From the NCBI GenBank assembly GCA_046563655.1, contig JAJCTO010000010.1:310001-374000 (forward strand): DNA of 64,000 nucleotides. Reading direction: 5' to 3'. A program made the translations under genes and the position numbers. Of the stretch, positions 2,631-37,687 are shown piece by piece; the first letter of the stretch is position 1; the number at the start of each line of letters is the position of its first letter. This DNA comes from Yuukianura sp. NJ FZ-2021 (Eukaryota). The notes under the pieces were generated by a model, which saw nothing but the letters and a program-made list of their open reading frames with translations, did no database searches and was not told the origin of the DNA.

Positions 2631-2636
2631 TTTAAA
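2590..2636 (-). promoter_or_regulatory. Programmed -1 ribosomal frameshift signal (U UUA AAC plus stem-loop)
   Basis: TTTAAAC (2636-2630) lies in the gag frame. A 6-nt spacer containing the gag stop follows, then the hairpin GGGAGAATAAGA..TCTTATTTACTCCC (2623-2590). Confidence 0.85.
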
Positions 2637-17700: not shown

Positions 17701-19560
17701 AATTTTGATTTACAAAATGTAAGAGTCGGTTTTTCCCAGAAGTTCGATTGCCGTGTGAGTTATCATGATTCAAGGTGTCAAAGTGAGAACTCATGGTTTG
17801 CATCTGGACTGAAGGCAAGCTTGACACTTCACCGGCACTTCTAGCTTGAGCTCAGATGGAGGCTGACAACATGTTTTTCAACGTGTGATTTAGTCAGTTA
17901 TGCACTACGACGAAGTGGACCGTTATTTGATGAATACCAAGAATTTTGGTATGAGCGGTAACAAGGCATAAATTCAATTTTTCAGAACATTTAACACCTT
18001 GTTGTGTAGTTTCAACCCTAAGTTAAACCTAAATCGTAGTTAGACTTATGCACTTGTGGTATGGTGGAGCTGTGCTAAAATACAATTTCGAACTATTGTT
18101 GGGCAGAAGTTTTTAGACGTGATCTATTTAATGTGCAAGTTGGTAGGTAATATAAAAATGTGTTTTCCAAAAATTCTATCCAGAAATGGCAAAAAATCTT
18201 GAATGTTCAATTTTGATTTACAAAATGTAAGAGTCGGTTTTTCCCAGAAGTTCCATTGCCGTGTGAGTTATCATGATTCAAGGTGTCAAAGTGAGAACTC
18301 ATGGTTTGCATCTGGACTGAAGGCAAGCTTGACACTTCACCGGCACTTCTAGCTTGAGCTCAAAGATGGTTGCTGACAACATGTTTTTCAACGTGTGATT
18401 TAGTCAGTTATGCACTACGACGAAGTGGACCCTTATTTGATGAATACCAAGAATTTTGGTACAAGCGGTAGCAAGGCATAAATTCAATTTTTCAGAACAT
18501 TTAACACCTTGTTGTGTAGTTTCAACCCTAAGTTAAACCTAAATCGTAGTTAGACTTATGCACTTGTGGTATGGTGGAGCTGTGCTAAAATACAATTTCG
18601 AACTATTGTTGGGCAGAAGTTTTCAGACGTGATCTATTTAATGTGCAAGTTGGTAGGTAATATAAAAATGTGTTTTCCAAAAATTCTATCCAGAAATGGC
18701 AAAAAATCTTGAATATTCAATTTTGATTTACAAAATGTAAGAGTCGGTTTTTCCCAGAAGTTCGATTGCCGTGTGAGTTATCATGATTCAAGGTGTCAAA
18801 GTGAGAACTCATGGTTTGCATCTGGACTGAAGGCAAGCTTGACACTTCACCGGCACTTCTAGCTTGAGCTCAGATGGAGGCTGACAACATGTTTTTCAAC
18901 GTGTGATTTAGTCAGTTATGCACTACGACGAAGTGGACCGTTATTTGATGAATACCAAGAATTTTGGTATGAGCGGTAACAAGGCATAAATTCAATTTTT
19001 CAGAACATTTAACACCTTGTTGTGTAGTTTCAACCCTAAGTTAAACCTAAATCGTAGTTAGACTTATGCACTTGTGGTATGGTGGAGCTGTGCTAAAATA
19101 CAATTTCGAACTATTGTTGGGCAGAAGTTTTTAGACGTGATCTATTTAATGTGCAAGTTGGTAGGTAATATAAAAATGTGTTTTCCAAAAATTCTATCCA
19201 GAAATGGCAAAAAATCTTGAATGTTCAATTTTGATTTACAAAATGTAAGAGTCGGTTTTTCCCAGAAGTTCCATTGCCGTGTGAGTTATCATGATTCAAG
19301 GTGTCAAAGTGAGAACTCATGGTTTGCATCTGGACTGAAGGCAAGCTTGACACTTCACCGGCACTTCTAGCTTGAGCTCAAAGATGGAGGCTGACAACAT
19401 GTTTTTCAACGTGTGATTTAGTCAGTTATGCACTACGACGAAGTGGACCGTTGTTTGATGAATACCAAGAATTTTGGTATAAGCGGTAACAAGGCATAAA
19501 TTCAATTTTTCAGAACATTTAACACCTTGTTGTATAGTTTCAACCCTCAGATAAAAATAA
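11759..19560. repeat. Satellite array, ~510-bp monomer, ~14.4 copies
   Basis: GGCACTTCTAGCTTGAGCTC recurs at about 11759, 12270, 12780, 13288, 13798, 14308, 14816, 15794, 16304, 16814, 17324, 17834, 18342, 18852 and 19360. Confidence 0.97.
15017..15471 (-). mobile_element. tRNA-derived SINE (~455 bp) with poly(A) tail and 13-bp TSD
   Basis: TSD CAGATAAAAATAA at 15004-15016 and 15472-15484; T10 tail at 15017-15026; Pol III B box GGTTCGAGTCC (15404-15394) and an A-box-like sequence near the 5' end. Confidence 0.88.
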
Positions 19561-19658
19561 TTTTTTTTTTTGGAGAGTTAATTGACATTAGCATTTAGCT
19601 TTATCAACAGGGGTAGGGAATTTCTGGGTTGGGTTGAGGTCCTATGAGGTGGGGCGGT
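19561..19658 (-). mobile_element. 3' fragment of the same SINE, interrupted by the Polinton
   Basis: It matches 15017-15113 at the same satellite position, then switches abruptly to AGTAGT. Confidence 0.9.
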
Positions 19659-19960
19659 AGTAGTATGATAATGTCAGCTAAGAACGTAAAACGTTCCTAA
19701 AACGTTTGGTGAGTCACACATTTAACTCATTAAGAATGCAAGGTTAGGTGCAAAGGTTAGGTGTGCGAAAGCTTTGAGTTGATGGTACAAAGTCCGAACG
19801 TTTTTTCGAAGACGGAAGGAGGAGTGGTGACTCATGACCCTTTGGCAAGAATGCAAGGTCAGTGTAAGGCTGAAAGTCTGTTTTCGAAGGCCTTGTAGTC
19901 GTTGGTCCAAAGTCCGAAATGTTTTGAAAGACACAAGGACAGTGGTGAGTCATTTCCCAA
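19659..19960 (+). repeat. Left terminus with ~115-120 bp subterminal tandem repeats
   Basis: AAGAATGCAAGGT at ~19731 and ~19847; CAAAGTCCGAA at ~19788 and ~19908; GGTGASTCA at ~19708, ~19826 and ~19944. Confidence 0.75.
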
Positions 19961-20087
19961 CGTGTGCAAAGAAGGATCGTATTTTATGCGTGATTTCATC
20001 ATGCACTATAAAAAGAGGAGCGCAAACTATGTTTTGCGCATGTATATAAAGTTAGTTGTGCTTAAGTTGTAGCAAGTCATTCAAAAC

Positions 20088-21026
20088 ATGGAAGTCCTCT
20101 TGACGTATGAGGGGAGATTAAAAACGTACCAGAACGCTCAAGTCAGATGGCCGTTGAGTTTTGTTACCCCGGAAGCATGTTCGTGTGCGGGATTTTACTA
20201 CCTTGGAGTAGATGACATGGTGGGTAATTTTCAACTTTTTCAAAAAAAAAAACGTCAGGTTGTTGAATAATAATAATTTTTTGAACAGGTTGCTTGTCCA
20301 TATTGTCGAGGTGTCGTTGGGCAGTGGGTGGTTGGTGACGACCCGTTGTTGGAGCACCGTAAACACTTCCCGCGCTGTCCGTATGTTGTAGTTCTAGTAG
20401 GTCTGCTGTCCGGGGTTGGATTCGTAGTTGCTCCAGATGCAACTAGAACTGGAGCGGGCGCCACGGCTGGATTTGACGTTTCCGGAAATGCAAACACTCA
20501 AACCGGAATGCCCAGCGCGGGAAGTACCGATGTTTCCGGTTCTGCTAACACTGCCACCGACCCTAGTTCGTTGGGAATACATGGTTTCGGTGCTGGAACC
20601 GCAGGAACTCAGGCAGCCGAGCCCGAGGCCGGCATTCCTGGCTCGGCAAGAACCGACATGGCTGGGGCAACCGCGGCAGAAACCGACATAGCTGGCTCGG
20701 CAAGAACTTATGTGAACGAAATAACTACACTCGAGACGGACATACGCGGCGCGGGAGGAACCGATGTTGCCGGTGCCGGAACCCAACCCATTTTAAGAGC
20801 AGCATCCTGTGCTTTGGCATATGACGTTTATAATTTGGCGGCTGCCGACGTAAAAAGCGACAATTCGAGTAACAGTCTTACTTGTAAGATTTGTTGGGAC
20901 AAAGAAGCCTGTGATGTATTCCTACCGTGCAAACATCTGATTGCCTGTCCAACATGTTCGTTATCGTTAAAAAGTTGTGCAGTTTGCCGAGAACCTATAC
21001 TAATTAGATTGAAGGTGTTTACTTAG
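20088..21026 (+). CDS. iap: Inhibitor of apoptosis (single BIR plus C-terminal RING), 2 exons (20088-20219, 20289-21026), ~289 aa
   Basis: RLKTY..WP..AGFYYLGVDDM|VACPYC..W..DDPLLEHRKHFPRCPYV (BIR) and CKICWD..FLPCKHLIACPTC..CAVCR (IAP-type RING). TATA at ~20044 and AATAAA at 21151. Confidence 0.92.
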
Positions 21027-21259
21027 TTGTGAAATAGTGATATTCTATATTCAGTTTTCTAAGTCATCTCACAACCCAATTCATGTAGCATTGAATTGAG
21101 TTGTGGGATGACTTTTGTTGCTGTGAGTTCGAATCTTAGTTTGGTATATGAATAAAAAAAGCAATGTGTTTATGCAACGTTTGGATGACGTGTTTTTGAA
21201 TTAGTATTTAATGAGCTAAACTTCTGAGTAACTAAACATTCGTTGTCGGAGCTGAGACC

Positions 21260-24200
21260 ATGGACGGGATCATTAAATTTAAGTGCGACAATTGTGGTGA
21301 CCGTTTTGATTCACAAGATTCTTATTGGGATCACGCGTTTCAACTTCATGTTTACGACCTTCGCATACCACGTCAAGGTATTTTTGAACAAAAAAAAAAA
21401 AAGATTTGAGTTGGGCACCTTTCGAGGTTATGTTACTTTGGCTAGAGTGGGAACCTCGGGACGATCAGGTTCCGGGTCCAAGTCGTCCCAGAGTAGCAGG
21501 AAGTGACGGATCTCAAGCGAGGAATTTTGGAAGTCCAGAAGAACCAATTCTTGATGCAATTTTAGAAGGGCTGCTTGATTATGAAGGTAGTAACAAGAGA
21601 AAATGACTCAATTGCATAGTCCTGAAATACAAAAAAAAATTTTTTTTTTGTAGAAGAATTGTCAGAGACTCAGCAATCGGTCATGAATGCAGACTTGTCA
21701 AACTATCGCGAGAGATTCTGTTCACACTGCGCCATCAAGTTTGAGAACGCCGGAGAGCTGGATTACCATCGGTTCGAGTTTCATCGGGAACTCTACACGG
21801 ATCATGCGGAAGGTCAACAGTGGGGAGGATCTGAAAGTCGGCTTGAGATTCGAGAAGTCCTGAGGGCTGGACGTCGCCGAAATGGCGGTGATGGTGGCAT
21901 CGTAAGAGAATTCGAAGTCGATTTGACTGAACGACTGTTTGCAGACGTGACTGGCGTGATGCGAAGTACAGCTAACGCCCTGACAATTTTGCTCGAGGGA
22001 CTTGTTCAAGAGTTTAGGGGTATGAAATTGATTGGAACCTTGATTGCAGAGATGACTAGAAGATCAAGGGACCGGCCAGGTGAAGCCGAAGTCGAACGGT
22101 TTCCATTCAACAGTTTTCTACATGGGTGTTTTCATCAAAGTATGATTCAAACTATTCTGAGGCAAATGTTCTCGAAAATGAGGTTGTCTTTGGAATCATT
22201 CATTCACCACGGTTCGGGCTGGAAGCTGAAGCGCTTCTTGCTACTTCAAGTTAGAGTTTTTGAGTTTAGGATGGACCGAGGGTCGGCTTGGATTCCAACT
22301 CCCAAAGTCATTCGCGACAAACGGTGCATCATAAATATTCGGCACAATGACGAATTCTGCTTCAAGTACGCCGTCCTGGCAGAACTGAACCCACTTTACA
22401 AGAACCCGAATGTTGACTGGTACGCCTTTACCAATCCTAGGAATTATCAGACAAATTGTGCCGAGATTGACTGGGATTGCTTAAATTTTCCGGTGACAAT
22501 CGGACAACTTGACAAGTTCCACCACTTCAACCCACAGATTGCAGTTAATGTGTTTGGCTACGAATCACGAGACGAACTTGCTCCAAGTTTGAAAGGCAAA
22601 AAGAAGATTGACATTTTCCCTCTTTATATTTGTAGAGAGAAAAGAGCAAAAAGTGTGGATTTGTTGTTACTAATCGATGGGAACAATTCTCATTACACAC
22701 TGTTGCGTCAAAGTGATTATAATCCGACGGAGGGCTTGTCTCGATCACTCGGAAAGGGTGAACGTAATTATGAAAAGTTTGTGTGTCGATTCTGTATGTG
22801 CTTCTCAACAAGTGAACGGAATTTGCAAACTCACCAAAAGTATTGTGCGTCACTGGACCTACAACGCGTCGTGTTACCAACCCAACAAATGTACACGTCG
22901 GACTTCATTGTGCAACGGCTTCCGGTGCCATATGTCATTTATTTAGACTTTGAGGCAGTTTTAGTACCTACGGATGGGATTGGTACTCGACAAATTGGTG
23001 ATGTTTATAACGAACATATTGACTGCGGCTGGTCAGTGAGTATCATTGGACCTGACGGGTTTCTTGCGGACCGTGTTGTGACATTTTGTGGTCCGAATGC
23101 TGCACTGAAGTTGATTGACGAACTCGTATCTGCTGCAGCAAAGATATATCCGATTTTGAAAAAAGATGTCGGCCGTGACCCGCGCTGGATCGAATCTGAC
23201 TATACTAATCTCCTGTCAGCTTCAACTCACTGTATCCATTGTGGTTTAGAGTTTGTGCAAGGAGTTGACACTAAGTGCATTGACCATTGCCATATTACAT
23301 CAGCAATTCGGGGAGTGAGTTGCGGTCCGTGTAACTTGAAAGCACAAGTCTGCTCATTTATTCCAGTTGTGTGTCATGGTTTTCGGCATTATGATTCAAA
23401 ATTTATTGTGCAAGCATTACGTGCTAGTACAATTAAATCTGTTGAAGTGTTGGCGAGCAGCAGCACCGAGAAGTTTACTGCGCTTCGGTTGACAACCCAT
23501 GGAGATCATGTTCTGCGAATGATTGATTCGTTTCAGTTTATTAGTGCGAGCTTAGCAGAGCAAGTCAAAATGCTTGCCAAAGAAGGAAAAGACAAATTTG
23601 GTGTGACTTGTCACCATTTTCAACAGTACGGAAGTAAAATTGAATTACTTTTAAGAAAAGGGGTTTACCCTTACAGTTACTTTGACTCCATGGAGCGATT
23701 TGATGAAACGTGTTTGCCACCTGCCGAAAAATGGAAAAGCGATTTGACTGGAAAATCCATCAGTCCTGAAGATTTGGGAACATGCGCATACGGTTTGGCG
23801 GGAATTTGGCTGTCAAACATTGAGAGATTATCACAACTTGTACGTTTCTCTTGATGTTTGCCTCCTGGCGGATTGTTTCCAGAATATGAGAAGAAGTATG
23901 CTCGAGAGTTTCCGCCTGGATCCGGCGCACTATCTCACTCTTCCAGGAATAGCATACGACGCAGCAATGTTGGCAGGAAAAGTGGAGTACGAGTATCTGG
24001 ATGAGATTGACAAGTACATGTATTTTGAACGCGGGATTCGGGGTGGAATTTGTTCTGTCGGACTACGTTATGCAAAAGCAAATAACCCTTACTTGGGGGA
24101 TTTGTATGACCCGGCGCTTCCATTGAGTTACATTTGTTACTGGGATGCAAACGCCTTGTACGCAACTTGTTTGAGGAACTACGTTCCGTGGAAAGATTTT

Positions 24201-25511
24201 GTGTGGGAAATGTCACTGGAAAACAGAACAAGAAATTTGGATAGTGTCGTGAAGATGATCATGGATTTGGAGGATTGTGGTCCGGAGGGATTAGTTTTGG
24301 AGGTAGATTTGGATTATCCGCAAGAATTGCATGATTCTCACAATGACTACCCATTAGCAGTACAGCGAAGTGAAATAACATACGATTGGCTGTCCGACTA
24401 CACAAAAGAAGTTTTGAAGAACGTGGGAGCTACACCTGGATCTTGCAAAAAAACAAAACTTTTGGGAACATTGTGTAACAAAAGAAACTACATTGTCCAT
24501 TATCGACTTTTAAAGTTGTTTTTGGAGCTTGGACTGAAACTTGTGAAGGTTCACAGAGCCATACGGTTTACACAAGCTCCATTATTTCGTGTATACACGG
24601 ACATTTGTATAACACGTCGACGCGAAGCGACGAATCCGGTGGATAAGAACTTTTACAAGGCCATGGGAAACATTTTGGCGGGAAAAGTTTACCAAAATGT
24701 CCGGAAATATAGGCGGATCAACATTGCATTATCAAGAGAGAAGATGAGAGAATACGCCCGAAAGCCAACCGTTGAGGACGTCAAAATCATTCATGATGAG
24801 TGTGTTTTGTTTGTGATGAAAAAGTTGGCTGCTAGGCTAGACAAACCTATTTTTGTTGGACAGTGCATTTTGGATGATTCCAAATGCAGAATGTACAGTT
24901 TTTACTATAAGTGGTTAAAGCCGCGATATGGAGACAACATGAGGCTGATGTATACCGATACGGATAGCTTCTTACTTCACATAAAAACGGAAGATGTTTA
25001 TGCAGATATAGCTGAAAGTGTGAGGAGGAATGAAGGCGTTTTTGACACATCAAAGTACGACAGAGGAAATGAAAAATTTGGATATTTGTGGAGTGACCAA
25101 TTTGAAGGGGTTGGTGGTTGCTTCAAGGACGAATGTGCCAACGAAGTGATTTCGGAAGCAATAGCATTGAAGCCAAAAATGTATGCAATCAAGATGTTGA
25201 AGGACGATGGGACGCAAACTCAACTGAAGAAGGCAAAAGGAACAGTTTGCTCTGTTGTCGAGAATGAATTGGATTTTGAAGATTACAAAAAAGTTTTAGA
25301 AAACGGGCGGTTCAAGTCTTGTAGTATGAATACAATTCGAAGTTTAAATCACCGTTTATATACAACTACAATGTACAAAAAAAGTTTGTCAGCATATGAA
25401 GATAAGAGTTTTTATTTGTCTCCAATTGATTCATTAAGATTTGGTCATTATAGAATTGAATTAGAAAAGAATTTGCATCAAATTGTAGACGATTTGGAAG
25501 AAGATGAATAA
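21260..25511 (+). CDS. Protein-primed family B DNA polymerase (pPolB); exons 21260-21377, 21446-21586, 21654-25511; one +1 frameshift at 23776-23778
   Basis: Motifs YLDFEA, HGFRHYDS, RKGVYPYSY, WDANALY, YTDTDS, PKMY, plus an endonuclease VII-like CIHC..DHCH..CGPCN segment and two N-terminal C2H2 fingers. Removing one G gives PEDLEHAHTVWREFGCQTLRDYH and joins the two ORFs. Confidence 0.92.
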
Positions 25512-25569
25512 AGCCAATTAGATTAAATGTCCTTCCAGTTAGTAGTTGTTTGGGGTTTGATTTGTCAAG

Positions 25570-26229
25570 ATGGAAATTCAATGTTCATTGCAGCATCCTT
25601 TTGTCATGGTGTTGGCCGGTCCTACACAAAGTGGAAAAAGTACATTGATTAAAAAAGTTTTGGAACGCATAGACGAAGTTGTTGAGCCAAAAATCAAGCG
25701 TATAATCTACTGTTATGCCGAGGATGAGCCGGATTTTGCAAAAAGTTTAAAAGGAGTTCACAGTGGAAAAGAAATTGAAATTGATTTTCGCCAAGGTATG
25801 AATCAAATTGATGTTGACATTGGAAACAAGACGCCAACTCTTGTTGTGTTGGATGACTTTATGGAAGACCTTGGATCATCCTTGGATATTTGTAGAATGG
25901 TAACTCGGGGTTCCCATCACCGTTCACTGTCTCTTATGATTACGATTCAAAATTTTTTCTTTAAAGGATGTAGGAATTTGACTTTAAATGCAAAATATGT
26001 TGCACTATTTCGAAATCCAAGGGATAAGACTATAATAAAATATTTGGGACGACAAATGAATGGCGGAAAAGCAAATTCGACGTTAGAAGAAGCATTTGAG
26101 GATGCTACAAAAAATAAGCCAAATAGCTATTTATTTTTAGATATGTCTCAAAGTCAAAATGATGAGTTTCGAATAAGATCAAATGTATTTGCAGATCCAG
26201 AATCTTGTGTAGTATATTTGAAAAAGTAA
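25570..26229 (+). CDS. A32/FtsK-like genome packaging ATPase
   Basis: Walker A GPTQSGKS, Walker B VVLDD, plus RGSHHR, ITIQN and YLFLD. Confidence 0.93.
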   Translation: MEIQCSLQHPFVMVLAGPTQSGKSTLIKKVLERIDEVVEPKIKRIIYCYAEDEPDFAKSLKGVHSGKEIEIDFRQGMNQIDVDIGNKTPTLVVLDDFMEDLGSSLDICRMVTRGSHHRSLSLMITIQNFFFKGCRNLTLNAKYVALFRNPRDKTIIKYLGRQMNGGKANSTLEEAFEDATKNKPNSYLFLDMSQSQNDEFRIRSNVFADPESCVVYLKK

Positions 26230-26235
26230 CATACC

Positions 26236-26727
26236 TTAGTTTCGTTTCAATTTTGAAAGTCCTTCTGTGAGACAATCAAATAAATGGATTGGAATCACAA
26301 CACTAGATGCAGCATCGTAAACATTTTTAATATGTAAATGTGTGAGCGGTCCTTGGTCGTTTCCTTGTTCATTGCCAATGTAGAGCTGCCAACCATCCTC
26401 CAAATTTACTCGTGGTGGTGGATGTGGTTTAGGAAATTCTTGACGAACTTCAACTACCATTGCCAAAGATGTGACTTTGCGAGGAAGTTTGGGAATACGA
26501 ACACGTTTGCGTTGCTTCTTTTCTTGGAGTTCTCCTGTGATAAGATTTGGGTTTAGGTTAAGAAAATCTTGAATTGGAGAATCCATTTCGGATGACTTTT
26601 GTTCTGTTTTGTTGAGGTTACAGTTACAAGAAAATGTTTCACAAACAGTAATTGTAGTAGTAGAATTTTTCTTGAAACAAAAATTTGCAAATGAACGCCA
26701 GAGAGAGCAAATTTGACATGAGCTCAT
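26236..26727 (-). CDS. Hypothetical protein (163 aa)
   Basis: The ORF is packed tightly between the ATPase and the integrase; no motif confidently recognised. Confidence 0.55.
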   Translation of the reverse strand: MSSCQICSLWRSFANFCFKKNSTTTITVCETFSCNCNLNKTEQKSSEMDSPIQDFLNLNPNLITGELQEKKQRKRVRIPKLPRKVTSLAMVVEVRQEFPKPHPPPRVNLEDGWQLYIGNEQGNDQGPLTHLHIKNVYDAASSVVIPIHLFDCLTEGLSKLKRN

Positions 26728-26745
26728 GTCACGGTAAAGTTAAAC

Positions 26746-27702
26746 TCAAGACTGAGGAATGCGTTGAAGTTCTTCGTTGTAAAATATTCCAAATATGTGT
26801 TCACCTTTGCCATCTTTTAACTTGTAGGTTACGGGTTGCGTATTACAAACTTCAACAATTTGAAAAATTTCTTTTGTCCAGCTTTGGGCATATCCCTTTT
26901 CAAAAATCATTTTAGTTTTACTAATTATTACGGAGTCTCCGACGTTGAAGTTAGGACGTTTGTGTTTTGCTTGGCTTTGTTTTGGTGAGTATCCGTACAA
27001 GTTTAGAAATACTTGAGTTTTTGTGTCTTCATTGACTTGATTTGGCGTACATTTGATGGAACGATGATATGTGTTGTTGTATGAATTTAAAATACTTTGC
27101 AAAACATCTAAAAATTTATTAGTCTGATTGTGTGTCATATATCTTGCCAACCTTCTCATTAATGTTTGGTTAAATCTTTCAACTATTACTGCCTTCAGTT
27201 CGGATCTAGTACTAAAGTATGAAACAGAATGTTGTTTTAAAAGTTGTTTAACATTTTGATTTAAAAACTCTTTCCCTTCATCAAATTGAATTGACTTGGG
27301 AGGGCCTCTTTTCTTAAAAATTTTTTGCAACGCGTTTGCTACTTGACTTCCAGTTTTCTTTTTTAAAGGAATGACGTCAGCGACTTTAGAAAAACCGTCA
27401 ATACAAGTTAACAAGAAGTTATGATTCGTATTCGACTCGGAATACTTTGAAATGTCGATTAGGTCAATTATATACTGATATCTAATAGACGGTATAAAAA
27501 CTTTTCGTCTATTGTATCGTTTTCTAGTAGGTTTGTGAAGAGTATAAGCTGGAAGTTGTTCTAATGCTTTTAGTACACTTCTTTTGCTGAATCCATTTTT
27601 CTTTTGAGCTTGAAAAGTTCCTTCTAATCCAGAAAATGCAAAACTTGAACGAGGATTAACGTATTCTTTACGAATTTTCTCTGTCAACTGTTTCTGTGCC
27701 AT
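26746..27702 (-). CDS. Retroviral-like DDE integrase (intronless)
   Basis: IIDLID, CIDGFSK, QFDEGKEF, VERFNQTL, FEKGY..WTKEIF and FYNEELQ. Confidence 0.95.
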   Translation of the reverse strand: MAQKQLTEKIRKEYVNPRSSFAFSGLEGTFQAQKKNGFSKRSVLKALEQLPAYTLHKPTRKRYNRRKVFIPSIRYQYIIDLIDISKYSESNTNHNFLLTCIDGFSKVADVIPLKKKTGSQVANALQKIFKKRGPPKSIQFDEGKEFLNQNVKQLLKQHSVSYFSTRSELKAVIVERFNQTLMRRLARYMTHNQTNKFLDVLQSILNSYNNTYHRSIKCTPNQVNEDTKTQVFLNLYGYSPKQSQAKHKRPNFNVGDSVIISKTKMIFEKGYAQSWTKEIFQIVEVCNTQPVTYKLKDGKGEHIFGIFYNEELQRIPQS

Positions 27703-27849
27703 TGTACAGATTAAGTCTGGCTACAAGAATTGGAGATGCAACAGTATATATCGTGGAGGTATATAAACGAGGTTAATCATTTGAAGTCTCAACATGAAAC
27801 TGTTCACACCACGTACAAAACAAGGCCGTGTTGTTGTTGTTGGATCATC

Positions 27850-28185
27850 ATGTCTACAACTGTGAAAGAAAATTCTGATTTTTTGAGATATCTAATCAAG
27901 TGTTCACCCCAACAAAGAAAAGCGTTAATTAAATATGCGAGTAGTGGTGAAGTCAAAAGTATTTGTGAATGTGTTTTGAATATATATAAAAAAAATGTTG
28001 GACTAAAAAAGTCGACAATTAAAAAATTACGTCCATTCAAAAGAGCAATACTTTCAATTGTCAAGAGAAGAGGTTCATCGTTGGTCAAAAAGAAAAAACT
28101 TTTGTCTCAAAAGGGTGGTGCAATAATTCCTTTAATTTTAGGATCCATGATTCCAAGCGTTTTATCAGCAATTTTACAAAAATGA
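27850..28185 (+). CDS. Basic virion-associated protein with a C-terminal amphipathic peptide after QKGG
   Basis: SICECVLNI..LLSQKGG|AIIPLILGSMIPSVLSAIL, a protein type commonly seen in Polintons. Start taken at the ATG at 27850. Confidence 0.7.
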   Translation: MSTTVKENSDFLRYLIKCSPQQRKALIKYASSGEVKSICECVLNIYKKNVGLKKSTIKKLRPFKRAILSIVKRRGSSLVKKKKLLSQKGGAIIPLILGSMIPSVLSAILQK

Positions 28186-29195
28186 AACGAATGCGTCTAA
28201 TTTCCGAATTAGACTACAAGAACCTATACGAAGAACCAAAAAAAGAAAAAAGTTCCCTTGAGTCATTAAAGACTGCTTATGGAAATGAAGATTTGGAACA
28301 CAAGAAGCAAACAATTTTATCTGTTGACGATGTACCAGATGACATCAAAGCTCTGTTGTATTATGATTTTTCTCGTCGACTATTACAAAAACAAAAACTT
28401 TTGTCAAATCGTCCAGTTTTAGTAAAATCTGTTTCTCCAGCAAATCCAAATTTGACATCAAACTATCCAAACAGCAATAGTAACAACCAATCCAACTTGT
28501 TACAAAAAATTGAGTATGTTACTGAACCATACATTTTAAAACAAGTACCAGGAAAGGATGCTAAAAAGTTTGTAAACTTTATGAAATTGAGTAATATTAG
28601 TTGGAATTCGGATTTGGAAATTTTAATTGATAATCAGCGTATTCCTTCTTCAAATATCATCAATGTCCTCTCCCAGTTTATTTCATTTAAAAAGAAAAAT
28701 TTATCAGAAAGGCAAAAACAAAATTTACTTTTCAATGTACCAGTGGGATGGAATGAAGTTAATGAACATTTACAAAAATTTGAAGAAGTACAAACCCCTC
28801 CTCAAACTGTACGGAGAATTCTTGAAAAAGTACCAAAAGGAGAAGGTGGTTCTGGTGGTTTTGGTGCTGATGTTGGTGGTAGTAGCAGAAACAAGAATTT
28901 AACTACTACAACATTTACCAGTGAACCAACAACACCCCTTTCATCACTTTTTAAAGGAGATTCTGAAACAAATACGGATGTGGATGATGTCGAAAGTAAT
29001 ACATTTGGTACACCACCAACCATGTCTCCAGAACAACATGAAAAAGCTGTAAAATCATCTCCACTCAAATCTCTTCCAATCAAAGAGAGATTAAGAAAAC
29101 GAGACCGAAACATTACAACTACAAACGAAAATTCCAAAAGTAAAAAAATTGTCAAAAAACAACTTGCCAAAAGTTGGGAAGCATATAGAAAGTGA
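28182..29195 (+). CDS. Polinton hypothetical protein (337 aa)
   Basis: ATGA overlap with the upstream gene; ISWN..EI.ID..IPSSNIINVL motif; Ser/Thr/Pro-rich and basic tail. Confidence 0.75.
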   Translation: MKRMRLISELDYKNLYEEPKKEKSSLESLKTAYGNEDLEHKKQTILSVDDVPDDIKALLYYDFSRRLLQKQKLLSNRPVLVKSVSPANPNLTSNYPNSNSNNQSNLLQKIEYVTEPYILKQVPGKDAKKFVNFMKLSNISWNSDLEILIDNQRIPSSNIINVLSQFISFKKKNLSERQKQNLLFNVPVGWNEVNEHLQKFEEVQTPPQTVRRILEKVPKGEGGSGGFGADVGGSSRNKNLTTTTFTSEPTTPLSSLFKGDSETNTDVDDVESNTFGTPPTMSPEQHEKAVKSSPLKSLPIKERLRKRDRNITTTNENSKSKKIVKKQLAKSWEAYRK

Positions 29196-29273
29196 AGTTT
29201 TTTCTTCTCTCATAAAATCCCTACTTCATGTGTGCAGGGATGCGCGCGCGCGCGGTCCCTGCTTTATCATGGT

Positions 29274-29509
29274 GGGTTTTAAACCCAACAATGCTACGCG
29301 GGGTGTTAGCCCCTGCTGACCACGTGGATTTGAGCCCTGCGTGCAACTTGGGTTTAAGCCCTGCGTGCAACTTGAGTTTAAGCCCTGCGTGCAACTTGGG
29401 TTTAAGCCCAGCGTGCAACTTGGGTTTAAGCCCTGCGTGCAACTTGGGTTTAAGCCCTGCGTACAACATGGGCTTTACACCTGCGTGCAACCCGGGGTTT
29501 AAACCCCCG
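29274..29509. repeat. 24-bp minisatellite with a quasi-palindromic core
   Basis: About 7 copies of GCCCTGCGTGCAACTTGGGTTTAA, bounded by GGGTTTTAAACCC and GGGGTTTAAACCCC. Confidence 0.9.
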
Positions 29510-29621
29510 CTTCCTCCCCCCACCCAAACTCTAGTTTATTTAATTCACAAGTAAACGTTGTATTTTATCTTAGTGTGATTTTATATTTCATCAAATAAAC
29601 ACGTGTCATCACAAAAAAAAA

Positions 29622-30422
29622 ATGGCGCATCAACAACGTGATACCTCATTTTTTGTAACATTACAATCAAACGCATGTATGGATTTATTTCCAGATAATA
29701 AAATTTCAAATTTCAAAAACCGTCTTTCTACAACAATCTCTCTCCCAGCTGGGCAATGGGAAGTTGCGCTTACAGAAATCTCATATACATTTGGAAATGC
29801 AATAATACATTCTGGTGACGTGTTATTTTCAACTTTCAAAAAAAGTGAAGACGAGTCTGTGTCGTCGTTACAAACATATATCTGCAGCAGAAACATTACA
29901 AGTGAACAGGAACTGTTACAAGAACTGTCATCTGCTCTAAACGGAGCTACTTTTGAAATTAGAAACCACATTTTCTATTATCAATTTCCATTGCTACATG
30001 AAGGAATTATAGTTTCACAAAAATTGGTTGATATTCTTGGTTTACCTAAAGCAGATCTTTCTGTAAGAAGTAATGCAAAAGCTACAGAAAAACTTTTTCT
30101 ACAAAAACCTTTTCAACTCAAAGGTCAAGGAACAATGCCCGTCTTTTTTAATACTGGAAATACAAAAATGTTTGTATACTGCAACCTTATTAAACCACAA
30201 TTTGTTGGAGATGTACTAGTACAGTGTCTGCGGGTTGTCAATTATGATGGACACATACGACGTCAAGTTGTTAATGAATTTTCACATCCATATTTTTTGT
30301 ACCTCGCCGTAAGTGAGTTTGATACTGTCAAAATCTATTTATTAAATGAAGTAGGAGAAAATCTGGCATTACAATTTGGAAACGTGACGGCGACGCTTCG
30401 CTTCCGTCAACGAAAATATTAA
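29622..30422 (+). CDS. Minor capsid protein (penton-like, single jelly-roll)
   Basis: FFVTLQSNACMDLFPDNKISNF..WEVALTEISY and MFVYCNLIKPQFVGDVLVQCLRVV..TLRFR. Confidence 0.92.
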   Translation: MAHQQRDTSFFVTLQSNACMDLFPDNKISNFKNRLSTTISLPAGQWEVALTEISYTFGNAIIHSGDVLFSTFKKSEDESVSSLQTYICSRNITSEQELLQELSSALNGATFEIRNHIFYYQFPLLHEGIIVSQKLVDILGLPKADLSVRSNAKATEKLFLQKPFQLKGQGTMPVFFNTGNTKMFVYCNLIKPQFVGDVLVQCLRVVNYDGHIRRQVVNEFSHPYFLYLAVSEFDTVKIYLLNEVGENLALQFGNVTATLRFRQRKY

Positions 30423-30434
30423 GAGCAAAAAAAA

Positions 30435-30881
30435 ATGAGAGCCTTAGTTCCATACAATTGCGCTAGAGATGGCGCTGAAAATTTCTTCAAATTTTCAACA
30501 CATCTCAATCCTTCTTTTCATCAAATTGGTTATGGATCCCCCATATTTTTTAGTGGAGTACGAAGACAAAGGGGAGCCGGGTTGGGAGCTGTGCTAGGTA
30601 CATTTGCAAGGAGGCTAGTACCATTTTTAAAAAAATATATCGCTCCGCATGCATTGACGGCAGCGCGTGCAGTGGCATCTGATCTAATTGAACGTAAACG
30701 TCCATTTTCTGAATCACTTCGTTCTCACGGAATAGATGCTCTTAAAGAAGCAGGGCGGGACTTGCTTAATCAGACGGGATCTGGACGGCGAATCACAAAG
30801 AAGCATAGAAAACGAAAGAAAAAGAAAAAGAAAAAAGTTGCCAAAAAAGCAAAAGCTTCCAAACTCAGATACCTCTTTTAA
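30435..30881 (+). CDS. Putative core/DNA-condensing protein
   Basis: QIGYG, QRGAGLGAVLG and QTGSG motifs with a very basic C-terminal tail; located between mCP and MCP. Confidence 0.8.
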   Translation: MRALVPYNCARDGAENFFKFSTHLNPSFHQIGYGSPIFFSGVRRQRGAGLGAVLGTFARRLVPFLKKYIAPHALTAARAVASDLIERKRPFSESLRSHGIDALKEAGRDLLNQTGSGRRITKKHRKRKKKKKKKVAKKAKASKLRYLF

Positions 30882-30891
30882 CAAAAAAAAA

Positions 30892-32238
30892 ATGCCAAAA
30901 GTTAAATCTTCCAGAGTTTCTCCATCATCTTCTTCTTCTTCTTTACCTTACACATTTGTTAGATCAGAAACACAACTCTTTGAAGAACCAATCTTTGATG
31001 TTAGTCTGGCATCAACTTCAGCTACGGAATTTCATTCAATCAACTCACTTTCAGACAATCAAGCTCCTCTAGAATTTTTTGTACAAGGAAACCAAACTGA
31101 ACTAATCGACTTGTCGGAAACAAAACTTTATTTAAAAGTCAAAATTGTGAAGCAGAATGGTACAGATTTGGACGACACCTCAATTGTTGCACCAGTCAAC
31201 AATTTCCTTCACTCTTTATTTCTACAGTGTTCAATATATCTCAACGAAGTTTTAATTACTCCTGCAAGTTTGCAATATGCCTACAGGGCATACTTGGAAA
31301 CTTTACTTGGATATGGAAAAGAATACAAACGCTCCCAAAGTCAATGCTCACTTTTCTACAAGGACAAGGATCCTAAATGTACAGATGAAACAAAAGAGGA
31401 TGGATTTAAACAAAGATACGCATTTGCTGTAAAAAGCAAAACAATTGAAATGGTCGGGCGTCCATTCACCGACCTTTGTGTTCAAAACAAATTTCTTGTT
31501 CCTTCAATTGACTTGCGGATTTCATTTCTAAGATCCACTCCAGAATTTTGTCTTGTTGCCAAAACAACTGGCAACTATCAAGTTCAAATACAAGATGCAC
31601 GTCTAATTGTACAACGACATCAACTCCTTCCATCCTTACTAACTTCAATTCTCCAAACTTGGGAGCATGGGAAACCAGCAACTTATCCCATGAAACGAGT
31701 TGAAATTAAAACATATACCCTATCTCCTGGTACAGTCACCAACGTCAACGAAAATCTCATTTCTGGTGTCATATGTGATCGACTACTTATTGGACTTTTA
31801 CCGTCAGAAAACTACATTGGATCTATAACTACAAATCCATTTGCATTTGAGCACTTTGACTTGAGCTATATAAATGTCAGCATTAATGGTGACTCTGGAA
31901 CTGCACTTGGGACACATGTTGACTTCAGCCAAGATCAATATGTTCAACTCTACCATAATCTGTTTAGTAGTCTCGGAATTGCCAACGACGACGTTGGATT
32001 AGATTTGAACCGGGAGGAATTCAAATCTCACCCACTAATGCTATATAATCTCAGACATTCAAAAGAAGGGTTTCCTACTCCGAAGTACGGCAACGTCAAA
32101 ATTGATCTCAAATTTAAAACGGCACTCAAAAGCTCTGTCACCGTCCTCGTCTATGCCGAGTTTCAATCCGTCTTACACATTGATTCTACAAAATCAGTAT
32201 ACTTTAGAGACTACAGTCTAGCCAGCCTTCAACAATGA
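30892..32238 (+). CDS. Major capsid protein (double jelly-roll), ~448 aa
   Basis: SETQLF, PLEFFV, IDLSETKLYLKVKI, PVNNFLHSLF, YAYRAYLETLL, NPFAFEHF and VLVYAEF. The start was moved to the ATG at 30892, after the upstream stop. Confidence 0.93.
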   Translation: MPKVKSSRVSPSSSSSSLPYTFVRSETQLFEEPIFDVSLASTSATEFHSINSLSDNQAPLEFFVQGNQTELIDLSETKLYLKVKIVKQNGTDLDDTSIVAPVNNFLHSLFLQCSIYLNEVLITPASLQYAYRAYLETLLGYGKEYKRSQSQCSLFYKDKDPKCTDETKEDGFKQRYAFAVKSKTIEMVGRPFTDLCVQNKFLVPSIDLRISFLRSTPEFCLVAKTTGNYQVQIQDARLIVQRHQLLPSLLTSILQTWEHGKPATYPMKRVEIKTYTLSPGTVTNVNENLISGVICDRLLIGLLPSENYIGSITTNPFAFEHFDLSYINVSINGDSGTALGTHVDFSQDQYVQLYHNLFSSLGIANDDVGLDLNREEFKSHPLMLYNLRHSKEGFPTPKYGNVKIDLKFKTALKSSVTVLVYAEFQSVLHIDSTKSVYFRDYSLASLQQ

Positions 32239-32759
32239 ATACACAACAAATTTATTCTTATCTTGCCAAAATTGTCGGCAAATATCCTTCAACTTTTGAT
32301 GTAATTCCAATAGATCATTTGAATAACATGGAAATTTTTACCTATCCACTTCTCCTGGTCGTCAACAGTGCTCCTTCTCATCATCCAGGACAACATTGGC
32401 TTGCCCTATTTAGGGAAAACTCCAAATCTCCACTAACATTTATAGATTCTTATGGACTTGGTGTAGAAATGTATCATGTAGCTCTGCAAAACTTTGCGAA
32501 ACGTTTAAACACTTCAATAATTGAAAATACGAGACAACTTCAAAGTATAAATTCTACAGTTTGCGGTGAGTATGCCATTTACTTTTTGTATAAACTGTTG
32601 CATTCCTGCTGTTTAATGTCAATCTACTGCAACTTTACCATCAATACTATAAGAAATGATAGACGCGTAAAACGTTTTGTCAGAAAAATGCTTCCGCAAA
32701 TAATAAAAACTATTCCCTACTATGATAATATTCAATGTTGTACTCCATTTACGAAATAA
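32235..32759 (+). CDS. Adenain-like maturation cysteine protease
   Basis: VNS..HPGQHWLA, FIDSYG and QLQSINSTVCGEYAIYFL, giving a His-Asp-Cys triad with the oxyanion Gln. Confidence 0.93.
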   Translation: MNTQQIYSYLAKIVGKYPSTFDVIPIDHLNNMEIFTYPLLLVVNSAPSHHPGQHWLALFRENSKSPLTFIDSYGLGVEMYHVALQNFAKRLNTSIIENTRQLQSINSTVCGEYAIYFLYKLLHSCCLMSIYCNFTINTIRNDRRVKRFVRKMLPQIIKTIPYYDNIQCCTPFTK

Positions 32760-32855
32760 AAAAAAAACATCAAATAAACTCTCTTTTTTATGCTGCACAA
32801 TACTCACAATGGAGCTTTTATTTTTCTTTCAAATTATTTCTTAAAATAATTTCTT

Positions 32856-33242
32856 CTAATCGTGAGGCATATCTTCAATTTCCTCCTTGGCAGATGCAAC
32901 ATCTCTCAAGCAGCTTTGAAGCGTATCCGCGGCTTTGTCCAAGTCACACCCGACGGCACGGCAATAAATGTTCGTAAGTTTCCGCATGACATATGGGATG
33001 TTCCGGCCCTCAAAGTTGACCACCTTTCCCTTGCGTTTAAAGTACACCCAAGTGTATGGTCGTCCTTGAAAAATCGAGTCCCGATGGAAAACCTCCAACT
33101 TTTTGTCATCCTCCACATAATTCAACACCTCGCGCTCAACTCCGTCATCTACGACCGCTTGATCTCCTTAAACACATACACAAAAAAATAATTTTCCCCT
33201 TCTTTTCTAGTGTAACAAAAAAAAATTACCTCTTTTGTCCAT
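32856..33242 (-). CDS. Small spliced hypothetical protein (intron 33167-33229)
   Basis: G|GTAATT..TTTAAG|GA joins MDKR to GDQAVVDDGVEREVLNYVEDD.. in frame. The start could instead be the upstream ATG near 33317. Confidence 0.55.
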
Positions 33243-33431
33243 TGCTACAAGTAAGAGCTTCCTTCTCCAAATGCTTCTCAGAAACTGAATGATCTGACAT
33301 GCAACTAATGCCATCATTTTATACCACCACAAAACGTACAGAGAACGACATTTTTATTCAACCAAATAGAACGACAAAAAAAAAACGCAAACATTTTAGT
33401 CATAGTCATTAGTAATACAAATTACTTAAGA

Positions 33432-35357
33432 CTACCAACTTGCATATTCATCAGCAATCTTTTCCAACTCCCTCACAAGCAAGTCCTTTGCTTCCGTATC
33501 CTGACTAAACCGAAATGTAAAACTCGTTCCTGCCAAAATCTGCCCTCCGCGGGTAACTGTTGAAATCCTTCTTCTTGGTTCCATCGCCACAAGCACTCCT
33601 AAAGCATCAGCTGCCGCCAAAATTTTGTCCCAGCATTCTTTGTCCTTCTCGTAGCTAAACCTTGTTTGTTGACAGACACCAGACAATGAAATCTCTTGAA
33701 GGGTTGGAATTCTTGGAACAATTTCCAAGAACACCACATGGTCAACCCCGCAAGAGTAATCAATATGACCGCCAAGACGGTCCAAATGCAGTTTTGTCAA
33801 ATTTGGTAGACATGTAATTGACCTTACAAGTTCGCCACGTAACACGTTTGCGCCAACCAGCGTAAGCTTCTGGATGGACTTGGGATAATTTTGCTGACAA
33901 ACAGTTTTGTGAAAGCCTTGAAAACGTCCATGTCCAAAGAAAAATGGGCTGTGGCTGTGAGGAATAAACTCCAGCCGCAATTCCTTCAAATTTTTCAGCT
34001 CATCCAATCCCTCAATCTGATACGGAGACCTCGCGTCCATCACCACGTTGCTCACATCCAAAATTCGCAGACTTTCCTTGCTGTTCTTGATTATCGAGGC
34101 CATCCGTTTCATTGAAACTCCGTCAAGCTCCACCTTCAAGCATTCAAAAGCATTTGGCAGGTCCACCAACTTCCACCAAATGCTAAAAAACGAAGACGGG
34201 AATGCGTAGTGCGGAAGACATCTTATCTCCAAATCCCGCAACTTTGGTAACAGCACGTTCGCCACAGGGCCGAACTCTCCAAAGTCAAAATTTGCCCTCA
34301 TGCATGTAAGGCTTAAAACTTCCAACTTCCCTTGATGTCTTCTGATGAATTCGAAGAAATTATGAACTGTTTCCGGCTTGAATTTGTGACAAAGATGGAA
34401 CTCGGATAGCTGCTCCAGGACAAACTCCGGTTTTGAGCACAAAATTTCAAACAACCCTGGTAACGCGTGTCTTCCAACATTACTTGCGGAAAGGCAAGTG
34501 TCAATCTTGAGTCTAGTCAAGTACTGAAAATGATCCACCATTTGTGACGGGGTAAATTGCGCACAATTAATTTTTTTTATGCCACCAACGTGAAAAAAGT
34601 TCATCTTCGGAACAAAGTAGTAGGTGCGAATTGCGTTCCGTAGACCGCTCATAGAACAAGTTCCAGTGAATGTTACCTCTTGGACCAAGTTTCGAAACTT
34701 GAGTACAGGCAGCACTCCTTCGCGGAAGTTTTTCAAGACCAGATGATTAACTTTGGCCTCTTTCATATGCGGGGGAACCCAGTTGTTGTAGCACACAACC
34801 TTCCATAATGCTAACCTACACAAAAAACAATCCAGATGAAAAAACTTAAAAAATCACCGCAAGTCCACTTTGTGTGTATTTGGCGAACCTGTCAACCCGT
34901 ATTCTCCACTCCCTGGACACAAGTCGCATTGCATTCAAGTCATTATTTTTCAAGTATGACAGCACCAAGGCCATCATCTAAAAAATAAAAATTCATTTGT
35001 TTCACTTCATCCCTTTGACATCTGAACATATAGATTTGTATACACATATACAAATCATATATATATATATATACATATATAAAAATCATATATATATATA
35101 AATCATATTTAGACTGCATATGAAATTGAACCTGATGGGGCAATGTGAGACTTTTTTTTTTGTTTTTTTTTTGTTACTTATGTGTTAACAACATCGTACG
35201 ATTCAAAATAACTTGCGACAACGTAGTCCAGTAGCTAGATCAAATTCTCCGTTCTCAAAAGGGCCAAGTCTCACATTTCCCCAGATAGGAAAGTATTTTA
35301 ACACCCTGGCCAATTGCTCACCTCAGCTGGAAGGCTTTCAAGCGTTGGGTCTTGCAT
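33432..35357 (-). CDS. F-box/LRR protein, 3 exons (35357-35322, 34977-34889, 34815-33432), ~502 aa
   Basis: The spliced N-terminus MQDPTLESLPAE|MMALVLSYLKNNDLNAMRLVSREWR is a canonical F-box. Downstream LxxLxL repeats (LPKLRDLEI, SLRILDVS, NLKELRLE, NLTKLHLD). TATA at ~35445. Confidence 0.85.
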
Positions 35358-35832
35358 TGCCCCAAACCAGTTTAAATTTGATTTTTGCTTTGTTTTTTCT
35401 GGTAAATGTTCCGCAATGTTGCAAATGGCAAAGTAGACATCTAATTATATACCCCCAGCCCAAAGAGAAACGTAAAATCTACGCCGCGGAATGCCCCACA
35501 GGGATGACATCACCGAATGAACGTCCAAGGTCAGACAACATGAGATGTTGAAATGGGTACAAAGATCATTTTGTGGTAATAATTGTATCCTACAATCTAC
35601 TGCACGAACGAAAGTCCAAGGTCATACGTCACATCCTACATTCCTGTTGTAATTTCTTTTTAACATGTGTAACTGCTTTATATCGCAATCAAAAATTAAT
35701 TTCTCAATTTCACAATTGTTCTCAATCGCAAAAAAAAATTTTTTTTCACAAATTTTCACCATTCAAAAAAATTTTTTTTATTCAGTTGCCAAAAAACATA
35801 CTTTTTTTTTGAAAACGAATACAAATTTTTTT

Positions 35833-37407
35833 TTAAAAGCGTTTCATCCTTGGTCGCAAGGTGCGCTGCGTGGCAACCACATTTGGCGAAATCCCAACAC
35901 ATTTGCGCGGTCGGCCTCTTCGGCGCCTGAGAGGATTCGGTCCTGCAACATTTGCTCCCTCCGCTTCGGCCTTGGTCACTCCCTCTCGATCCGCTTCGGC
36001 CTTGGCCACACTCGCCCCGGCTACTGTCCCAGACGATCCGGGCATGGGTGCCCTCTCCCCGACTCCTGCCGCTCCTTTCGCATCGGCCTTAGGCACTCCC
36101 GCACCAGCCGCTCCGTCGTCAGGCATTGCCACTTCCGCCGCTCTGTCGTATGCTGATGACTCCCTTTTGATAGCAACCGCTGCCAACTCACATCTTAAAC
36201 GGTTTAGTTCATCCCCGGCTTCCTGCTTGCAGCGTTCAGCCGAAGAAGCCCTCGTTTCCGCAAAAAATGCAGTGTCTCGTAGCCTACCAACTTGTTCCTG
36301 TAAATCAAAAATGCGCTGTCCGTAAGATGAGCATGATTCGTCCATCTGACGCTGCATATTCTCAATCCTCGCAGCAGATGCATACTGCTCGTGAACCAGG
36401 CGCATCCTTTCGGCATGAACCATCGCTTCAGACGCAATTAGTTTTTCATTTAACTCTTGATTTCGTTTTTCCGACGTTGACAGGCGTTCGTTCATGCCAT
36501 TCATCAAAGAAACATTTTTCGCCAAAGTTGTTTCCCTGCAAAACAAAACCCCAATTATCAAACAAGTAGAAATCGAATTAACAAAATATTAATGAGAGTG
36601 TGTTACACTCACCACGTTTGCGTCTTTGAGTTCAACTCCGTTTCTTTTTTATTCAGCTCCAACTGGAGCTGAACTATGACCCTAGTCTTGTGAGCCGAAC
36701 CACATTCGACCTCAGTAGCTCTACGGGCTCTGAAAACAAAGAAAAACAAAGATTAATTTTTTTTCTTCACAACAATAAAAAATCAAATTATTTTTTAAAA
36801 ATTTTGAAAAAAAAAATTCACTTACAACACACTTTGCATTGGCAACGAGGCCACCCTCCCCTGAATGTCATCTAGAACAGTTCGAATTTCGCTCATCAAA
36901 GCACTAAAATGAAAAAAAAAACTTTTGAACTTTTATTTTATGATATTTTTGCGAAAACAAAAAAAAACGGTTACCTGTTGTCGGCGTTTTCATTTGCCAC
37001 CTGCGCCCCATCATGGGCGGAGAAGAAGATTCTCCGCCCATCGACTTGCTCTCCCATGGTTTTCACTCCACAATAACACACCGGACATGGTGTCCTACGA
37101 AAACAAAAAAAAAGAAAAAAAACCGATTCTACACACAACTAGAAAAAACTTGAAAAAAAATCTTACACCACTTCTTCCTTGTGGCCAAGGCATCCAGGAT
37201 TTTTTGATGCCGCCCAGTTAATCATACAAACCCTAAAAAATTACAGAAAACAACAATTAATCAATTTCAAAAACAAAACTAGGTCAAATTATTATTTTTT
37301 TCTTACCAATGCAACGCATGATTGCATTCGGTGAGCACGACGATCGCCTTCGGGTCCGAAGGGGGATGGTCCCCAAGCAACTCACGACAAATGGAACAAA
37401 TTATCAT
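35833..37407 (-). CDS. RING-H2 plus coiled-coil plus AT-hook protein, 6 exons, ~394 aa
   Basis: Exons 37407-37307, 37232-37167, 37094-36975, 36903-36826, 36729-36613 and 36535-35833 splice in frame. The product has CSIC..CNHALHWVCMINW..CPVC, a heptad-rich middle and RRRRGRPRK. TATAAA at ~37490. Confidence 0.85.
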
Positions 37408-37589
37408 TAATAATAACTTTTTTTACCACTTAAATGAAACTTCAAGTGCGTTGACTCAACTGTACAAATCTAATTTTCAACACATCCTTATTTATATCAA
37501 ACAAATCTAGAATTTGCTTAGTTGCGCAATTTGCATCTTCAACATCATACAAGAACGTCAAGGACATTTTGAAAACTTTGAAAAGATAC

Positions 37590-37687
37590 TTTGGACCTTC
37601 ACCTTGCATTCTTGTTTGAGTTATTTCGATGACTCAACTTTCGAAACTAGAACGTTTTACGTTCTTGCACACACCAACCATGCTACT
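37590..37687 (-). repeat. Right terminus, a diverged inverted counterpart of the left end
   Basis: Its reverse complement reads AGTAGCATG..AAGAACGTAAAACGTTC..TGAGTCA..TAACTCA..AAGAATGCAAGGT, with the first blocks at the same offsets as on the left end. Confidence 0.85.

Follow-up and report, generated by a model that had tools for sequence, protein, structure and literature searches.

Among the Polintons, or Mavericks, terminal inverted repeats of 100 to 1500 bp have been described (Jeong et al.), and the account of vertebrate Mavericks by Barreat & Katzourakis (2021; PMC8097293) gives symmetric repeats with 6-bp duplications as the rule, the repeats running from 46 to 1447 bp (mean, 402) and ending in the motif 5'-(AGT)2//(ACT)2-3'. 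We analyzed a 64,000-nt stretch of contig JAJCTO010000010.1 (positions 310,001 to 374,000; hereafter, the window), in which positions 19659-37687 hold an element of 18,029 bp. Judged by its genes and its tips, it is one copy of a multi-copy Polinton/Maverick provirus from an animal, and thus a further member of a class that has already been described. What is new here is the placement of its ends: the two tips, which differ from each other, each stand in half of a different, unrelated insertion site, and no target-site duplication is present. Since this combination makes the copy a composite, we consider it to be probably a join of two insertions, either a recombinant or an assembly join, and not evidence for a novel type of terminus.

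Shared blocks at two unlike ends

Read inward, the left terminus (L-type, 19659..19758, + strand) and the right terminus (R-type, 37588..37687, − strand) each present a tip (AGTAGT and AGTAGC, respectively), a 17-nt block, an 8-bp palindrome, TGAGTCA, TAACTCA, and AAGAATGCAAGGT. The left tip at 19659-19667 reads AGTAGTATG and the right tip, taken as the reverse complement of 37679-37687, reads AGTAGCATG; AGTAG opens both, from 19659 inward on the + strand and from 37687 inward on the − strand, and the (AGT)2 end motif is matched at 6/6 positions on the left and at 5/6 on the right. The palindromic 17-nt block AAGAACGTAAAACGTTC occupies offsets 21-37 at both ends (19680-19696 on the + strand and 37650-37666 on the − strand), and these are its only two matches in the window when up to two mismatches are allowed, against an expectation of 0.00. 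It can form a 6-bp stem (7 bp on the right end) with a 3-nt loop, and the stem is present in the predicted single-stranded DNA fold of four out of four strands. Further in, TGAGTCA stands at offsets 51-57 (left, 19710-19716; right, 37630-37636) and TAACTCA at offsets 64-70 (left, 19723-19729; right, 37617-37623), and the fifth block, AAGAATGCAAGGT, follows at about offset 73 (19732-19744 and 37601-37613) with a 1-nt shift in register. Over the whole window, TGAGTCA shows no enrichment (9 occurrences against 9.15 expected), and five of the nine lie in the two arms.

A sequence-only reading of this stretch had proposed that the ends differ and yet share blocks at identical offsets, and that comparing them outlines candidate signals for replication and integration. 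Both proposals held up. In an ungapped comparison, 44 of the first 72 positions match between the ends, with a longest run of 17 and with 36 positions in runs of at least 5, and this degree of matching was reached by 0 of 20,000 shuffles and by 0 of 4560 interior 72-mers. When gaps are allowed, the first 100 nt of each end align with 76 matches in 108 columns, or 70%. The five blocks are 100% identical, whereas the spacers between them are unrelated, with an identity of about 25% that is at the random level. The likeness stops near offset 100, the 1-kb arms otherwise have no shared sequence, and no long inverted repeat was found in the element. Because the (AGT)2-type motif begins exactly where the known flank repeat breaks off, and because both ends carry the five identical blocks, we take both tips to be homologous and genuine element termini.

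The same reading had pointed to palindromes of differing sequence at offsets 41-48, and these are indeed present, as AAACGTTT on the left (19700-19707) and TTTCGAAA on the right (37639-37646). Palindromes of 8 bp begin at 100 of 18,022 positions in the element (0.55%), and the probability of meeting a second one at the equal offset by chance is about 0.006, a value counted post hoc; the palindromes are too short for folding by themselves. Reading along the left end, we also see that the 3' half of the hairpin is directly repeated there as the 9-nt TAAAACGTT (offsets 28-36 and 39-47), and the left palindrome falls within this repeat. The left arm also holds two subterminal direct repeats of 118 bp (19708..19943, + strand), with a partial third unit from 19944. 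Each contains GGTGA(G/C)TCA and then AAGAATGCAAGGT, and they are likely to be iterons, an enhancer, or a packaging region.

Two half-sites and the origin of the end mismatch

The left junction, 19658|19659, is exact, and its position is set by an intact copy of the insert that it interrupts. Left of the element lies a tandem array of a 510-bp unit (11781..19547, + strand, 15 copies), and this is followed by the left flank itself (19548..19658, + strand), which consists of a 13-nt target copy, CAGATAAAAATAA, and then the first 98 nt of an insert resembling a short interspersed element (SINE), cut by the Polinton tip. An intact SINE-like insert in the array provides the "empty site" for this junction (15004..15484, + strand): it is 455 bp long (15017-15471) and carries 13-nt target duplications of CAGATAAAAATAA. 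The 119 nt preceding 19659 recur with 99% identity at 14996-15113, inside the intact insert, which goes on with GGTACAG..., where the Polinton tip appears instead at 19659. The presence of the same insert at the same site in two 510-bp units (15004 and 19548) indicates either that the unit was amplified after the insertion or that the site was struck twice, and unfilled CAGATAAAAATAA sites occur at 13986 and 16492 in variant units of the array. ARAGORN found no tRNA in the insert, and a box-B-like stretch was seen by eye only.

The right junction, 37687|37688, is also exact, being set by the phase of the satellite that follows and by a loose contig end at 37688. The satellite has a 206-bp unit and a 409-bp higher-order period (37688..63991, + strand); its units match at about 84%, with short stretches in another phase near 49.1-50.5 kb, and none of it was found in the window to the left of 37688. 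The remainder of the SINE-like insert does not follow the right tip, and the hexamers just outside the element, GGCGGT at the left tip and GAAACT at the right, form no target-site duplication. We also considered whether the flanking arrays could be a giant inverted repeat and ruled this out, given that the 510-bp unit has no BLAST match in the 206-bp satellite.

Further copies were sought in four public sequencing runs from two studies (X1 to X4), which were compared with positions 19500-37850 of the window at 80% likeness. These runs yield short contigs, and the results given here cover 15 of 45 joints, 24 of 772 loose ends, and 32 of 2555 pieces. At the left junction, contigs from the runs go on with the SINE-like insert at 19662, and at the right junction they carry satellite before 37688. 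The Polinton family is multi-copy and diverged: the 842 contigs of X1 divide into 196, 221, 223, and 202 in likeness classes of 99% and above, 95-99%, 90-95%, and below 90%, and the contigs of X2 (301), X3 (926), and X4 (268) are spread in a similar manner. Contigs at least 99% alike to this copy exist for both arms, and they occur under two organism labels (A and B) from two studies, which may reflect either one species under two names or a very recent spread.

The terminal regions differ from copy to copy. In two kinds of contig, 19696 or 19701 is joined to 19904, and in one X1 contig, with a word depth of 661.8, 36820 is linked to 37567 by 11 letters of other sequence, so that the last 120 nt of the right end are kept and 746 nt of the right arm are missing. 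In one X1 contig, the exact right tip abuts position 20116, on the opposite strand, in a joint that looks like a nested insertion in which the R-type tip acts as a tip elsewhere. No element-spanning contig occurs among the pieces listed, and the join may be either a genomic recombinant or an assembly error.

A composite copy cannot serve to show that a new terminal architecture exists, and the question becomes what kind of parents were joined. Two integrated copies would have been connected through their interiors, by ectopic recombination or by an assembly join, and recombination and mosaicism among Polintons are documented in the literature. We favor, with a probability of roughly 0.5, parents from two sub-lineages that had diverged and that each carried symmetric repeats of their own, which would explain why the ends match so poorly. 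The left-right comparison would then be a footprint between lineages, with conserved blocks and scrambled spacers, and the differing palindromes at offsets 41-48 would be lineage-specific recognition sites, which makes two palindromes at one offset easier to explain. The sole complete relative that we found, a metagenome locus described below (L012), has symmetric repeats, as is the rule in vertebrate Mavericks.

We read the shared blocks as the putative cis signals of the family. The tip repeat would be used for protein-primed initiation, with jump-back; the 17-nt palindrome (offsets 21-37) and the TGAGT/ACTCA inverted repeat (offsets 51-70) would be putative sites to which host factors or the proteins of replication or integration bind; and AAGAATGCAAGGT, which recurs in the left arm, would be a putative iteron. 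To our knowledge, experiments have yet to define an origin or an integrase site for any Polinton, and these four features constitute a list of candidates.

Several points weigh against two sub-lineages. No second copy of either tip was observed with its partner. A join requires long near-identical sequence, which is easier to find within one family, and in that case the asymmetry would be natural. Spacers at the random level are odd for recombining parents, unless turnover is faster in the terminal modules than in the core. Moreover, if R-type ends sat at both ends of many copies, an inverted R-type block would be expected to be joined to the left-arm interior, yet there is none among the 15 of 45 joints listed, although with short contigs this negative is weak. 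The sequence-only reading had offered a choice between a chimera of two families and termini defined by motifs alone; the composite structure and the unrelated half-sites give the chimera a mechanism, but they do not thereby prove two families, as a join of two copies from one asymmetric family would look alike.

This last arrangement is a tentative alternative, in which the copy joins two L/R members of a single animal Polinton lineage whose ends are naturally unlike. Such ends would not be homogenized, and a 5-6-nt tip repeat, four in-register blocks, and a palindrome at offsets 41-48 kept by paired swaps would suffice. Exact in-register blocks with scrambled spacers fit long-term selection on motifs alone, the palindrome is preserved through three paired A/T swaps, and a join is easiest between near-identical copies, as members of one family would be. 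The contigs at least 99% alike for both arms and the lack of an R-type block at the left end in any of the joints listed point the same way, and the equal and opposite GC skew of the two halves, which switches 212 bp from the midpoint (see below), suggests that both ends serve as origins about equally. Such ends would resemble the U3/U5 ends of retroviruses or those of phi29, and protein-primed replicons with minimal repeats exist, as in phi29 with its 6 nt (PMC4974454). However, the L/R pairing itself was not observed, the sole complete relative found has 97% identical repeats, and the intact Mavericks reported in PMC8097293 have recognizable repeats of at least 46 bp together with duplications. 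Since a duplication is lacking here, the present copy does not by itself show that an element with one L-type and one R-type end can integrate, and one sequence-specific binding protein is hard to square with two palindromes at one offset. A search for asymmetric Polinton repeats led to PMC12721341, where "asymmetric" occurs once and in the title of a reference. Were natural asymmetry true, a eukaryotic integrating virus would be managing with minimal repeats much as phi29 does, the mirror GC skew would record both unlike ends firing equally as protein-primed origins, and repeat identity, and hence homogenization of the panhandle type, would be dispensable in this class.

It is improbable, in our estimation, that a single element was captured in a noncanonical manner, whether as a linear genome end-joined into a break or through independent integration of each end at a different target. 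In favor of such a capture, neither tip has lost even its first base, yet the flanks are unrelated and no duplication is present. Against it, end-joining usually erodes tips, and both are intact here; a chromosomal rearrangement would be needed simultaneously; and the capture would by itself leave the mismatch between the ends unexplained. Decay of a once-perfect long repeat after insertion can be dismissed: although the polymerase gene lies in two broken frames and the copy is thus not pristine, neutral decay deep enough to bring the spacers to about 25% identity beside five blocks at 100% would have destroyed the four core open reading frames (ORFs; capsid, integrase, ATPase, and protease, 174-500 aa), which are still open. 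We therefore return to the join of two insertions, most plausibly from two sub-lineages, and the case carries a caution that "odd" Polinton termini need half-site matching before a new terminal architecture is claimed.

Mirror GC skew and gene content

The two halves of 19659-37687 have GC skews of nearly equal size and opposite sign, +0.147 on the left and −0.160 on the right, and the cumulative skew reaches its maximum at 28885, which is 212 bp from the midpoint at 28673. This mirror arrangement was reached by 0 of 5000 block shuffles. Its sign tracks position and not gene strand, and it is held at third codon positions in 12 of 15 ORFs, the exceptions being an IAP-like gene, orf337, and orf148. 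The pattern fits strand-displacement replication from both tips, which may act through deamination of the displaced strand and for which there is adenoviral precedent. In L012, by contrast, the values are +0.047 and −0.011, a difference reached by 654 of 5000 shuffles, so that any mirror there is weak and not significant. We found no report of a mirror GC skew in Polintons in the literature searched, and, if general, it would be sequence-level evidence for end-initiated Polinton replication.

The assignment to Polinton/Maverick, which had also been made in the sequence-only reading, is borne out by the presence of a protein-primed-type family B polymerase (pPolB), an rve integrase, a packaging ATPase candidate, a major capsid protein (MCP), and an adenain-like protease. 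Polymerase, integrase, capsid module, and (AGT)2-type tip are thus all in place; the 5-8-bp (usually 6-bp) target-site duplication is lacking, and this is a failing of the copy and not of the family. On the evidence of the predicted proteins, MCP, protease, and ATPase together form a capsid module as in Polinton/Maverick.

The polymerase (21683..25511, + strand) is broken into two frames and was recognized by its motifs, by Atlas clusters, and by its match to L012. The motifs, read by eye, are YLDFEA, DANALY, KxxGN, and YTDTDS, which we take to be the Exo I, DANALY, KxxGN, and YTDTDS motifs of this family. Of 30 Atlas matches, 29 fall in clusters carrying PF03175, and both halves match a single 1134-aa ORF of L012 (E values of 9e-47 and 1e-92); searched directly, the Pfam model PF03175 gave no match to pPolB at E<=10, and no match was found among PDB sequences. 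The N-terminal half contains an Endonuclease VII-like zinc-binding stretch (residues 503-552 of ORF 21683-23854; window 23189-23338), which matches PF02945 with an E value of 3.7e-6 and 27.2 bits against a cutoff of 23.6.

Downstream, the ATPase candidate (25570..26229, + strand) matches AAA_14 with an E value of 1.1e-5 and 25.9 bits, short of the cutoff of 27, and Adeno_IVa2 with an E value of 0.007; an ORF of L012 shares 41% identity with it. The retroviral-type rve integrase (26746..27702, − strand) matches PF00665 at 2.1e-11, with 44.4 bits against a cutoff of 32.6. Five ORFs with no family assigned follow (27736..30881, + strand; 149, 337, 108, 266, and 148 aa) and make up a morphogenesis module; four of them (149, 337, 266, and 148 aa) match ORFs of L007, a second metagenome locus, with their order kept, and the 108-aa ORF contains a 24-bp tandem repeat of 7.5 copies (29325-29506). 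The MCP (30736..32238, + strand, 500 aa) was identified by homologue search, which returned 442 homologues at E<=1e-3, the best of them 63% identical, and the named ones are "F54H12.2-like" and of animal origin. The protease (32235..32759, + strand) matches Peptidase_C5 (PF00770) with an E value of 2.3e-4 and 21.4 bits against a cutoff of 21.3, and it is 48-51% identical to ORFs of L007 and of a third locus, L009. The order from integrase to protease is identical in L007.

In the right arm, ORFs of 444-473 aa and 223-251 aa read inward from the right end (33432..36588, − strand). Domain searches matched them to no family, and the first weakly matches an L009 ORF in the equivalent place (E value of 1.3e-8). 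The IAP-like gene (20073..21026, + strand) adjoins the terminal region of the left arm, with the two 118-bp subterminal repeats between it and the tip and with TATA-like sequences upstream of it, past those repeats. Its C-terminal RING matches PF13920 (E value of 4.3e-11) and its BIR domain matches PF00653 at 0.0035, under that model's cutoff; the BIR is split by a candidate 69-nt GT-AG intron (20220-20288, read by eye) that keeps the frame. Outside the element, a Ty3/gypsy-type retroelement with gag, protease, reverse transcriptase, RNase H, and an integrase zinc-binding domain occupies 3-4399 (− strand) and leaves the window at its start.

Relatives and known systems

Alignment of the MCP against metagenome contigs identified 44 loci. 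The end motifs are absent from all 44 in a BLAST search with both 400-nt ends, which returned five short matches of 14-21 nt (E values of 0.004-0.25), all of them outside the first 170 nt of either end. The 17-mer has six matches in viral contigs, about the chance number, none flanked by AGTAG or TGAGTCA, and the pattern of 17-mer plus TGAGTCA has no match in metagenome contigs and none in genome contigs. An MCP pattern gave 13 matches in viral contigs, with no relative among them. By MCP, the closest relatives are L007 and L009 (57-61% identity); no inverted repeats were found in either, and their tails have no recognizable terminus or right-arm similarity. In another locus, L047, a 291-nt inverted repeat with 90% identity (810-1098 and 5979-6269, about 5 kb apart) surrounds a weak capsid-like match and may mark a small related element.

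L012 (6048-21207) is a complete relative, with an MCP 40%, an integrase 46%, and a pPolB 26-35% identical to those of the present element. Its terminal repeats are 193 bp long and 97% identical, and it is flanked by a CTAGT direct repeat. The sequence-only reading had taken long and near-identical repeats to be the norm for Polintons; with L012 and the vertebrate range given above, this is roughly right. L012 shares the (AGT)n tips, with (AGT)3 at one and (AGT)2 at the other, as well as subterminal direct repeats inside the arms (about 105 bp, with CTCAATGCAAA), an AACGTT palindrome near the tip at another offset, and, as a lead only, an AATGCAA core in the subterminal repeats. Counts of AATGCAA are at chance in both elements (16 against 10.7 expected and 20 against 18.3 expected) and only its placement in the arms is suggestive; it was set aside as a common iteron core. 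L012 differs in gene order, its pPolB lying on the strand opposite the capsid module, and it has no clear GC-skew switch. It also lacks the 17-mer and the offset-41 palindrome, and of the tip, the 17-mer, and that palindrome only the (AGT)n tip is common to both elements.

Vertebrate Mavericks, as characterized in PMC8097293, have the same gene set of pPolB, rve integrase, ATPase, adenain-like protease, and capsid protein, a similar size (mean, 16,862 bp, compared with 18,029 bp here), and a modular gene arrangement that is likewise seen here. In contrast to what is described for them, the present copy has no 6-bp duplication, has a terminal repeat of about 100 bp at 70% gapped identity, and carries an IAP-like gene with a candidate intron.

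Adenovirus ends have a repeat of about 100 bp, a trinucleotide tip repeat that fits jump-back priming, conserved blocks with variable spacers, and a palindromic site about 20-40 nt from the tip at which a host factor is bound, and a unique region with repeated motifs lies beside one repeat only. The two repeats are identical within one adenoviral genome. The element described here is alike in the repeat of about 100 bp, the tip trinucleotide, the pattern of blocks and spacers, the palindromic site, and the one-sided repeated motifs, whereas its repeats are not identical and binding to them is putative only. Jump-back is also remarked upon in PMC8097293. The phi29-type phages, as described in PMC4974454, have a linear replicon primed from both ends, an inverted terminal repeat of 6 nt, and otherwise unlike ends; phi29 is, however, a bacterial virus without an integrase, and the element here has about 50 conserved positions between its ends, not 6.

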